A DNA stretch of 410 nucleotides from Escherichia coli (GTDB lineage: Bacteria > Pseudomonadota > Gammaproteobacteria > Enterobacterales > Enterobacteriaceae), in assembly GCF_003334305.1 (NCBI RefSeq), contig NZ_QOWS01000079.1; one strand, given 5' to 3'. The notes beneath the pieces are model-generated. The model saw only the letters and a program-made list of their open reading frames with translations, made no database searches and was not told the DNA's origin. Each line of letters opens with the position of its first letter. The stretch's first letter is position 1. The translations under genes were made by a program, and so were the position numbers. Shown here one piece after another: positions 1 to 410 of this stretch.

Positions 1-410
1 CTGGATATCGATATCCCGTATGCGACGGACCCGGCAGGAAACCGGCTGCCGGACCCGGAACTGCACCCGGACAGCACCCTCACGGCGTGGCCGGATAACC
101 GCATCGCGGAAGATGCGCACTATGTCTACCGCTACGATGAATACGGCAGGCTGGCGGAGAAGACGGACCGCATCCCGGAAGGGGTGATACGGATGCACGA
201 CGAGCGGACCCACCACTACCACTACGACAGCCAGCACCGTCTGGTGTTCTACACGCGGATACAGCACGGTGAGCCGCAGGTGGAGAGCCGCTACCTCTAT
301 GACCCGCTGGGCCGCCGGACGGGAAAACGGGTGTGGCGGCGGGAGCGTGACCTGACGGGGTGGATGTCGCTGTCGCGTAAACCGGAGGAGACCTGGTACG
401 GGTGGGACGG
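1..410 (+). CDS. Rhs-family / YD-repeat protein, internal core fragment (5' and 3' partial); polymorphic toxin shell region
   Basis: Frame 1 (codons starting at nt 1) is open across all 136 complete codons, while + frames 2 and 3 contain stops (frame 2: TGA at 185 and 353; frame 3: TAA at 96 and 378, TGA at 138, 300 and 348). Translation: [137 protein letters not shown]. It carries YD-repeat motifs (consensus roughly xYxYDxxGRL) at nt 13-48 (degenerate, [12 protein letters not shown]), 121-153 ([11 protein letters not shown]), 211-246 ([12 protein letters not shown]), 289-333 ([15 protein letters not shown]) and 394-410 (WYGWDG, cut by the window edge). Codon third positions are strongly G/C-biased (CCG, CTG, CGC, GAC, TAC), as expected for a real high-GC coding frame. 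The match to enterobacterial Rhs core is from memory, not a database search. The specific paralog cannot be assigned, so no gene symbol is given. Confidence 0.85.

Follow-up and report, generated by a model that had tools for sequence, protein, structure and literature searches.

The Window Encodes an Internal Segment of an Rhs Core Protein

The stretch of DNA analysed here (the window) comprises 410 bases of Escherichia coli DNA with a GC content of 65% and lies inside an Rhs gene. Frame +1 runs across all 410 bases as 136 codons with 0 stops. This openness is by itself poor evidence of coding here, because 2.3% of composition-matched mononucleotide shuffles are also stop-free in frame 1 and antisense frame −3 is open too. 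The frame 1 translation (136 amino acids), searched against NCBIfam, aligns end-to-end with the equivalog NF041261 (RHS_core, “RHS element core protein”) with an E value of 4.3e-93 and a score of 313 bits, far beyond chance, and the alignment spans profile positions 909–1044 of 1261. The score lies below the 2000-bit cutoff set for the whole protein only because the window is a 136 amino acid fragment. An earlier note, made from the sequence of the window, had described a single uninterrupted frame encoding an Rhs/YD-repeat protein, and this alignment confirms both parts of that description.

Readings at the nucleic acid level were rejected. A search of the window against Rfam returned no family at E ≤ 1, leaving no RNA element to propose, and the repeats seen in the DNA, two short two-copy matches and one weak 12-nt inverted repeat, are at chance level or echo the repeats of the protein.

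YD-like motifs start at window residues 7, 45, 75, 100, and 133, so that successive motifs are 38, 30, 25, and 33 residues apart (Table 1). The repeat at residues 43–57 is the only one in the window to score above the curated TIGR01643 cutoff of 15.8 bits. Pfam RHS_repeat (PF05593) gives three weak matches with E values of 0.2–3.8, and the degenerate motifs at residues 7 and 133 can be made out by eye only. The strict pattern YxYDxxG[RQNKE] is matched at residue 1006 of the full-length protein, which corresponds to the repeat YLYDPLGRR, and the WYGWD repeat cut by the end of the window continues with G in that protein. The “at least five” repeats counted previously are a fair reading of the sequence, since three are clear enough to be detected by profile and two are degenerate; their spacing had been given as about 25–36 residues.

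Table 1. Features of the window and of the full-length Rhs protein, and genomic situations in which the window is found
Feature	Position or location	Strand	Evidence
Internal segment of Rhs core ORF, frame 1	window 1–410	+	NF041261; residues 909–1044 of the 1416-residue Rhs protein of strain 504838
Degenerate YD-like repeat	window 10–48	+	loose pattern match; no profile match
Clear YD repeat YRYDEYGRL	window 127–153	+	TIGR01643, 20.1 bits (window residues 43–57); Pfam RHS_repeat, window residues 42–56, E 0.2
YD repeat variant YHYDSQHRL	window 217–243	+	Pfam RHS_repeat, window residues 72–82, E 3.5; pattern match
YD repeat YLYDPLGRR	window 292–318	+	Pfam RHS_repeat, window residues 96–108, E 3.8; strict pattern
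Start of degenerate repeat WYGWD, cut by window end	window 394–408	+	sequence only
Antisense frame −3 without stop codons	window 1–408	−	
DUF6531 plug	residues 47–123 of full-length protein		Pfam
RHS domain	residues 1153–1188 of full-length protein		Pfam
Rhs-associated core domain	residues 1179–1256 of full-length protein		TIGR03696, E 1.6e-23
Protease motif PVRFIDSLGL	residues 1247–1256 of full-length protein; L001 nt 10015–10044		sequence; also in L007
Intact, behind hcp-vgrG in T6SS cluster near yafV-ivy-fadE	L001, strain 504838		
Deletion remnant, truncated tssM joined to rhs at about residue 407–410	L002, about 7496–7506, strain WCHEC020031		
N-terminally truncated pseudogenes between yncH and pptA, without vgrG	L004, L005, L008		
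Intact at yncH-pptA behind frameshifted vgrG	L007		M91/dsORF-h1 copy
Different tail, intact 1505-residue Rhs	L006, strain W2-5		

The Full-Length Gene in Strain 504838

The window is 100% identical to positions 9001–9410 of a locus from E. coli strain 504838 (L001), within a CDS at 6277–10527 that encodes an intact Rhs protein. The full-length protein scores 2633.8 bits against RHS_core over residues 1–1256, above the cutoff of 2000 bits. It contains 13 matches to Pfam RHS_repeat at E ≤ 0.001 and matches the YD-repeat model TIGR01643 in 7 stretches (E 1.8e-48). Past the window, here as in most genomes that carry its sequence, the same frame runs through approximately 190 more shell residues before the protease motif is reached. 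The window therefore belongs to the late portion of the YD-repeat shell and precedes both the Rhs-associated core domain and the demarcation motif at its end, which is where the earlier note had placed it.

The segment ahead of the DUF6531 plug is short, about 46 residues. The literal peptide PAAR is present at residues 5–8, residues 1–1200 gave no match to Pfam PAAR_motif at E ≤ 10, and no PAAR structure was matched by sequence. Upstream of rhs in L001 we found hcp, vgrG (TIGR03361, E 1e-188), and tssB/C/E. Of the vgrG, PAAR, and hcp genes that had been anticipated upstream, hcp and vgrG are present directly upstream in this intact locus; no Pfam PAAR domain was detected. The PADLOC library of anti-phage defence genes returned nothing for the tail, the small downstream ORF dsORF-h1, or the N-terminus. 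Farther downstream of the Rhs element in the same strain (L001 11249–17867), an IS66-family element is inserted in an ISAs1 copy, and ivy is split by an IS3-family element.

The Core Ends in a Variant Protease Motif

The protease site of Rhs proteins has the form DPxG-X18-DPxG, in which both aspartates are catalytic and the chain is cut just after the second motif (PMC10684867). At the end of the core of the strain 504838 protein, DPIGL at residue 1230 is followed by PVRFIDSLGL, so that the site reads DPIG-X18-DSLGL: it retains both Asp residues and the spacing of 18 residues but has Ser at the place of the second, usually conserved Pro. The PxxxxDPxGL motif that had been expected after the window is consequently present, but in the form PxxxxDSxGL. 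The form DPLGL is kept in Shigella and Hafnia relatives and in the Rhs gene of strain W2-5.

An M91-like Tail and a Putative Immunity Protein Follow the Core

The core has a GC content of 63.5%; this drops to 36% over the 160 residues of the tail and to 33% in dsORF-h1, which encodes 149 amino acids. A C-terminal domain of different composition followed by a small ORF had been predicted, and both are found. When paralogous Rhs elements are compared, similarity ends exactly at the junction of core and tail.

The tail carries a HEFAH motif at residue 1340. Pfam Peptidase_M91 (PF14891) matches the E. coli tail alone weakly, with E values of 0.002–0.016; across the tail family, each of the 17 aligned members reaches E ≤ 0.1, and 10 reach E ≤ 0.001. 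Hafnia homologues of the tail, 43–45% identical to it, are named M91 family zinc metallopeptidase, and the blocks QSPALGLGHExxHA and EE.RVI..E..AAKTL.E are invariant among the relatives. NCBIfam holds no family for the tail or for dsORF-h1, and the sequences of solved structures gave no match to the tail even at E ≤ 10. An AlphaFold model of the tail has a pLDDT of 86. In a Foldseek search of the PDB with this model, the top matches were all HExxH zincins (botulinum toxin light chains, M1 aminopeptidases, and selecase), none of them significant (best E 0.015, TM < 0.5). These comparisons suggest that the tail is related to the M91 zinc metallopeptidases, an assignment that is weak for the E. 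coli tail taken alone.

The dsORF-h1 product has a hydrophobic, signal-peptide-like N-terminus. The ORF that follows the homologous M91 tail of Hafnia alvei shares 31% identity with dsORF-h1 (E 2e-20) and likewise has a leader-like start, from which we conclude that the pairing of toxin and partner is conserved across genera. The dsORF-h1 product is a putative immunity protein and, judged from its leader-like start, appears to be exported. The name dsORF-h1 presumably implies an RhsH element in Hill-laboratory naming. The name itself was not found in the literature searched, and a search for RhsH gave one relevant match, in which the name is used for a different EHEC gene.

In the Hafnia alvei locus (L003 2465–9355), Rhs is called as two overlapping ORFs, a 1179 amino acid shell and a 170 amino acid M91 tail. 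The tail ORF starts just before the DPLGL motif, suggesting a frameshift or a split gene call. A further 360 amino acid rhs fragment and small ORFs lie downstream and look like an orphan tail array.

The Window Occurs in Several Genomic Contexts

Matches to the window were found in 3720 of 5426 complete E. coli genomes, at a median of three places per genome. The places of lower identity are paralogous Rhs elements of the same genomes, whose cores are 82–96% identical to the window. At identities of at least 99%, 904 records match, many chromosomes at 100%, and the stretch from the window through the M91 tail to dsORF-h1 is found in 986 genomes; each figure is a total over the search.

Among the copies examined, the exact window occurs in at least five situations (Table 1), and the windows of L002, L004, L005, L006, and L008 are all 100% identical. 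A cassette consisting of the 3′ core, the M91 tail, dsORF-h1, and an ISAs1 remnant occupies two chromosomal loci: the T6SS cluster beside yafV (L001 and L002) and the interval between yncH and pptA (L004, L005, L007, and L008), which we take to be the position of rhsE in K-12. The ISAs1 (H-rpt type) remnant starts 261 nt after dsORF-h1 at both loci. Linkage to a T6SS is seen in L001, with hcp, vgrG, and tssB/C/E; the vgrG of L007 is frameshifted; usable T6SS or vgrG linkage is absent from the truncated copies L002, L004, L005, and L008. In the deletion represented by L002, part of the T6SS cluster, hcp, vgrG, and the start of rhs with its N-terminal segment and plug are gone. The identical tssM–rhs junction recurs in 206 complete E. 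coli genomes (query L002:7150–7800), and a whole lineage appears to have lost the secretion system yet to retain the toxin tail and dsORF-h1.

In strain W2-5, the exact window is followed by the canonical DPLGL, a 245-residue tail, and a 125-residue ORF, and both the tail and the ORF are unrelated to the M91 tail and dsORF-h1. The variable payload foreseen for such genes is thereby documented directly, with one identical window joined to a different tail and downstream ORF. The W2-5 tail (L006 6545–7659) begins with a Gly/Ala-rich hydrophobic stretch that is followed by a C-terminal domain; Pfam and NCBIfam returned nothing for the 245-residue tail or for the 125 amino acid ORF after it. Upstream of the W2-5 rhs gene lies an orphan fragment (L006 1772–2684) that has the linker PNVGKDLTDEEKNCL...GGW.P.DE in common with the main tail and runs into a different C-terminus, followed by a small DUF3969 protein. 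The arrangement suggests a displaced module of tail and immunity gene in which the linker is modular.

Comparison of these loci shows abrupt changes in divergence. L001 and L002 have approximately 65 differences over 7506–8547 (approximately 6%) and 2 over 8548–11300, and L001 and L006 share an identical block that starts 453 nt upstream of the window, reaches 171 nt past it, and there gives way to divergent sequence. Judged from these alignments, L001 and L002 form a recombination mosaic, and the window falls in its conserved 3′ block. The sharp change in divergence, the shared blocks, and the constant position of the ISAs1 remnant fit the established view that Rhs cores act as recombination substrates by which the 3′ core, tail, and immunity gene travel together. 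The window, with its 82–96% identity to paralogues, could itself be a substrate for homologous recombination that swaps tails.

Alternative Readings of the Window

The window could instead come from a dead remnant, an N-terminally truncated rhs pseudogene rather than a working effector gene. Such a remnant would have lost its start codon, its VgrG-binding N-terminus, its plug, and sometimes the secretion system, leaving the 3′ cassette orphaned, although an orphan cassette might still give immunity or donate its tail by recombination. We regard this origin as possible but doubtful. Exact windows do lie in such genes, both in L002, where rhs begins against the truncated tssM at the junction shared by the 206 genomes, and in the pseudogenes at yncH-pptA that have no vgrG (L004, L005, and L008). 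Annotation points in both directions: among the first 30 exact matches listed, 12 are not annotated as a core protein, and all 12 are accounted for as truncated (9 are on the deletion-junction list and 3 were read directly), but the other 18 carry the annotation of a full RHS element core protein. Of these 18, the genes read in L001, L007, and L006 are intact, 14 of 15 evenly spaced full-coverage rows from the window-to-dsORF-h1 search carry an intact core protein annotation, and the window itself contains neither a stop nor a frameshift. We estimate from totals that intact copies make up about two-thirds (60–75%). The earlier note had set its reading against that of a short pseudogene fragment; the frame is intact in L001, and a substantial minority of the exact matches are nevertheless truncated.

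A second question is whether the Rhs gene sampled by the window carries a payload other than the M91-like tail and hence different toxin and immunity genes. W2-5 proves that such an arrangement exists and disproves the idea that the exact window is always accompanied by the dsORF-h1 tail, although the combination is rare. Tails of the W2-5 type occur in 389 genomes, but W2-5 alone matches its window combination at 100%; the other listed genomes among the 389 match at 97.7%, which means a different core sequence around the window. As the only genome that joins this tail to the exact window, W2-5 is likely a recombinant, and when it is set against the 904 records and 986 genomes given above, we consider a different payload quite improbable for the window. 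A functional element on the opposite strand is scarcely credible. Frame −3 has zero stops across the whole window, but its translation is R/P/V-rich and of low complexity, a search of NCBIfam up to E 10 gave no family for it, and an open antisense frame is expected of coding DNA with 65% GC. The sense frame, in turn, has the RHS_core match (E 4e-93), and in every annotated genome examined the gene is called on the sense strand. We therefore rejected the antisense ORF as a usual by-product of GC-rich coding sequence. It also seems unlikely that the Ser variant of the protease motif alters toxin release or that the peptidase has a new periplasmic target. Either would be a modest variation on a known effector class, and if true, the window itself would add nothing to it.

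Proposed Mechanism

We consider it very probable that the window belongs to a polymorphic-toxin gene of the E. coli Rhs family, as a piece of its conserved, GC-rich core, in an explanation that includes the M91 tail and delivery by a T6SS. The window encodes part of the YD-repeat β-shell, which would surround the C-terminal toxin, and its role is structural only. By analogy with solved Rhs effectors, the shell is expected to enclose the tail, while the N-terminal segment (with PAAR at residues 5–8) and the DUF6531 plug would mount the protein on VgrG, and the T6SS would fire the complex into neighbouring bacteria.

Tse5 is cleaved at both an N-terminal and a C-terminal site (PMC10684867). If the E. 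coli protein is processed in the same way, D1230 and D1252 would cut the chain after L1256 and free the toxin inside the shell. Chain B of Tse5 begins at the residue aligned to residue 48 of the strain 504838 protein, and the N-terminal 47 residues of the latter may likewise be cut off before P48 and bind VgrG. The metallopeptidase probably acts in the periplasm of the target cell, because the putative immunity protein looks exported, as judged from its leader-like N-terminus alone.

Comparison with Known Systems

The feature is an ordinary, annotated E. coli Rhs element and is already known. With E. coli Rhs elements (NF041261) it shares the same sequence, the GC-rich core, the AT-rich tail, the small ORF, and an ISAs1 (H-rpt type) remnant, a make-up that is classic for Rhs elements. 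Nothing substantive sets it apart, except that the dsORF-h1 lineage reads DSLGL instead of DPLGL. The earlier note saw nothing in the window to indicate a novel system, and in this it was correct. The window represents a conserved, structural portion of genes whose family has been described in E. coli for decades and is automatically annotated in thousands of genomes. With 410 bases of Rhs core, one cannot tell whether the gene is intact, at which secretion locus it lies, or which toxin it carries, because identical copies are found in working genes, in deletion remnants, and once on another toxin.

Among T6SS Rhs effectors with solved structures are Tse5 of Pseudomonas aeruginosa (8cp6), Rhs1 of Photorhabdus laumondii (7q97), Tse15 of Acinetobacter baumannii (8uy4), and RhsA of Pseudomonas protegens (7pq5), which have in common the YD-repeat shell, the DUF6531 N-terminal plug, and the C-terminal aspartyl-protease plug. 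A phmmer search with the strain 504838 protein matched Tse5 (E 2e-121) and Rhs1 (E 1e-89), and the window falls inside the stretches aligned to 7q97_A (query 309–1082) and 8uy4_A (query 315–1073). Sequence similarity between the strain 504838 protein and the solved effectors is confined to the shell and plugs. The toxin tails of the solved effectors differ, that of Tse5 being pore-forming, and cleavage of the E. coli protein is predicted by its likeness to effectors such as Tse5.

The payload also has precedents, and Rhs–M91 effectors are nothing novel. A PAAR-Rhs-M91 effector of Salmonella Dublin is reported to be antibacterial and to be neutralised by its immunity protein (PMC8867033, PMC12288458), and a 2024 preprint notes an Rhs-Peptidase M91 of E. 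coli (STEC O22:H8) and states that its substrate is unknown. SED_RS06335 of Salmonella Dublin SPI-19 and the STEC O22:H8 protein resemble the element described here in their Rhs shell with a C-terminal HExxH M91-type tail, in the small candidate immunity gene after it, and, for the L001 copy, in the association with a T6SS. Compared by description, the Salmonella immunity candidate has 110 amino acids and a transmembrane domain, whereas the one found here has 149 amino acids and a leader-like N-terminus. The M91-type payload with its apparently exported partner would be a reasonable subject for effector biochemistry, but comparable effectors have already been reported. NleD, the M91 type III effector of EPEC and EHEC, shares the HExxH zincin core, and PF14891 matches the tail family; NleD, however, is a stand-alone protein that acts on host kinases, whereas here the domain forms the tail of an Rhs protein and is accompanied by an immunity-type bacterial partner.
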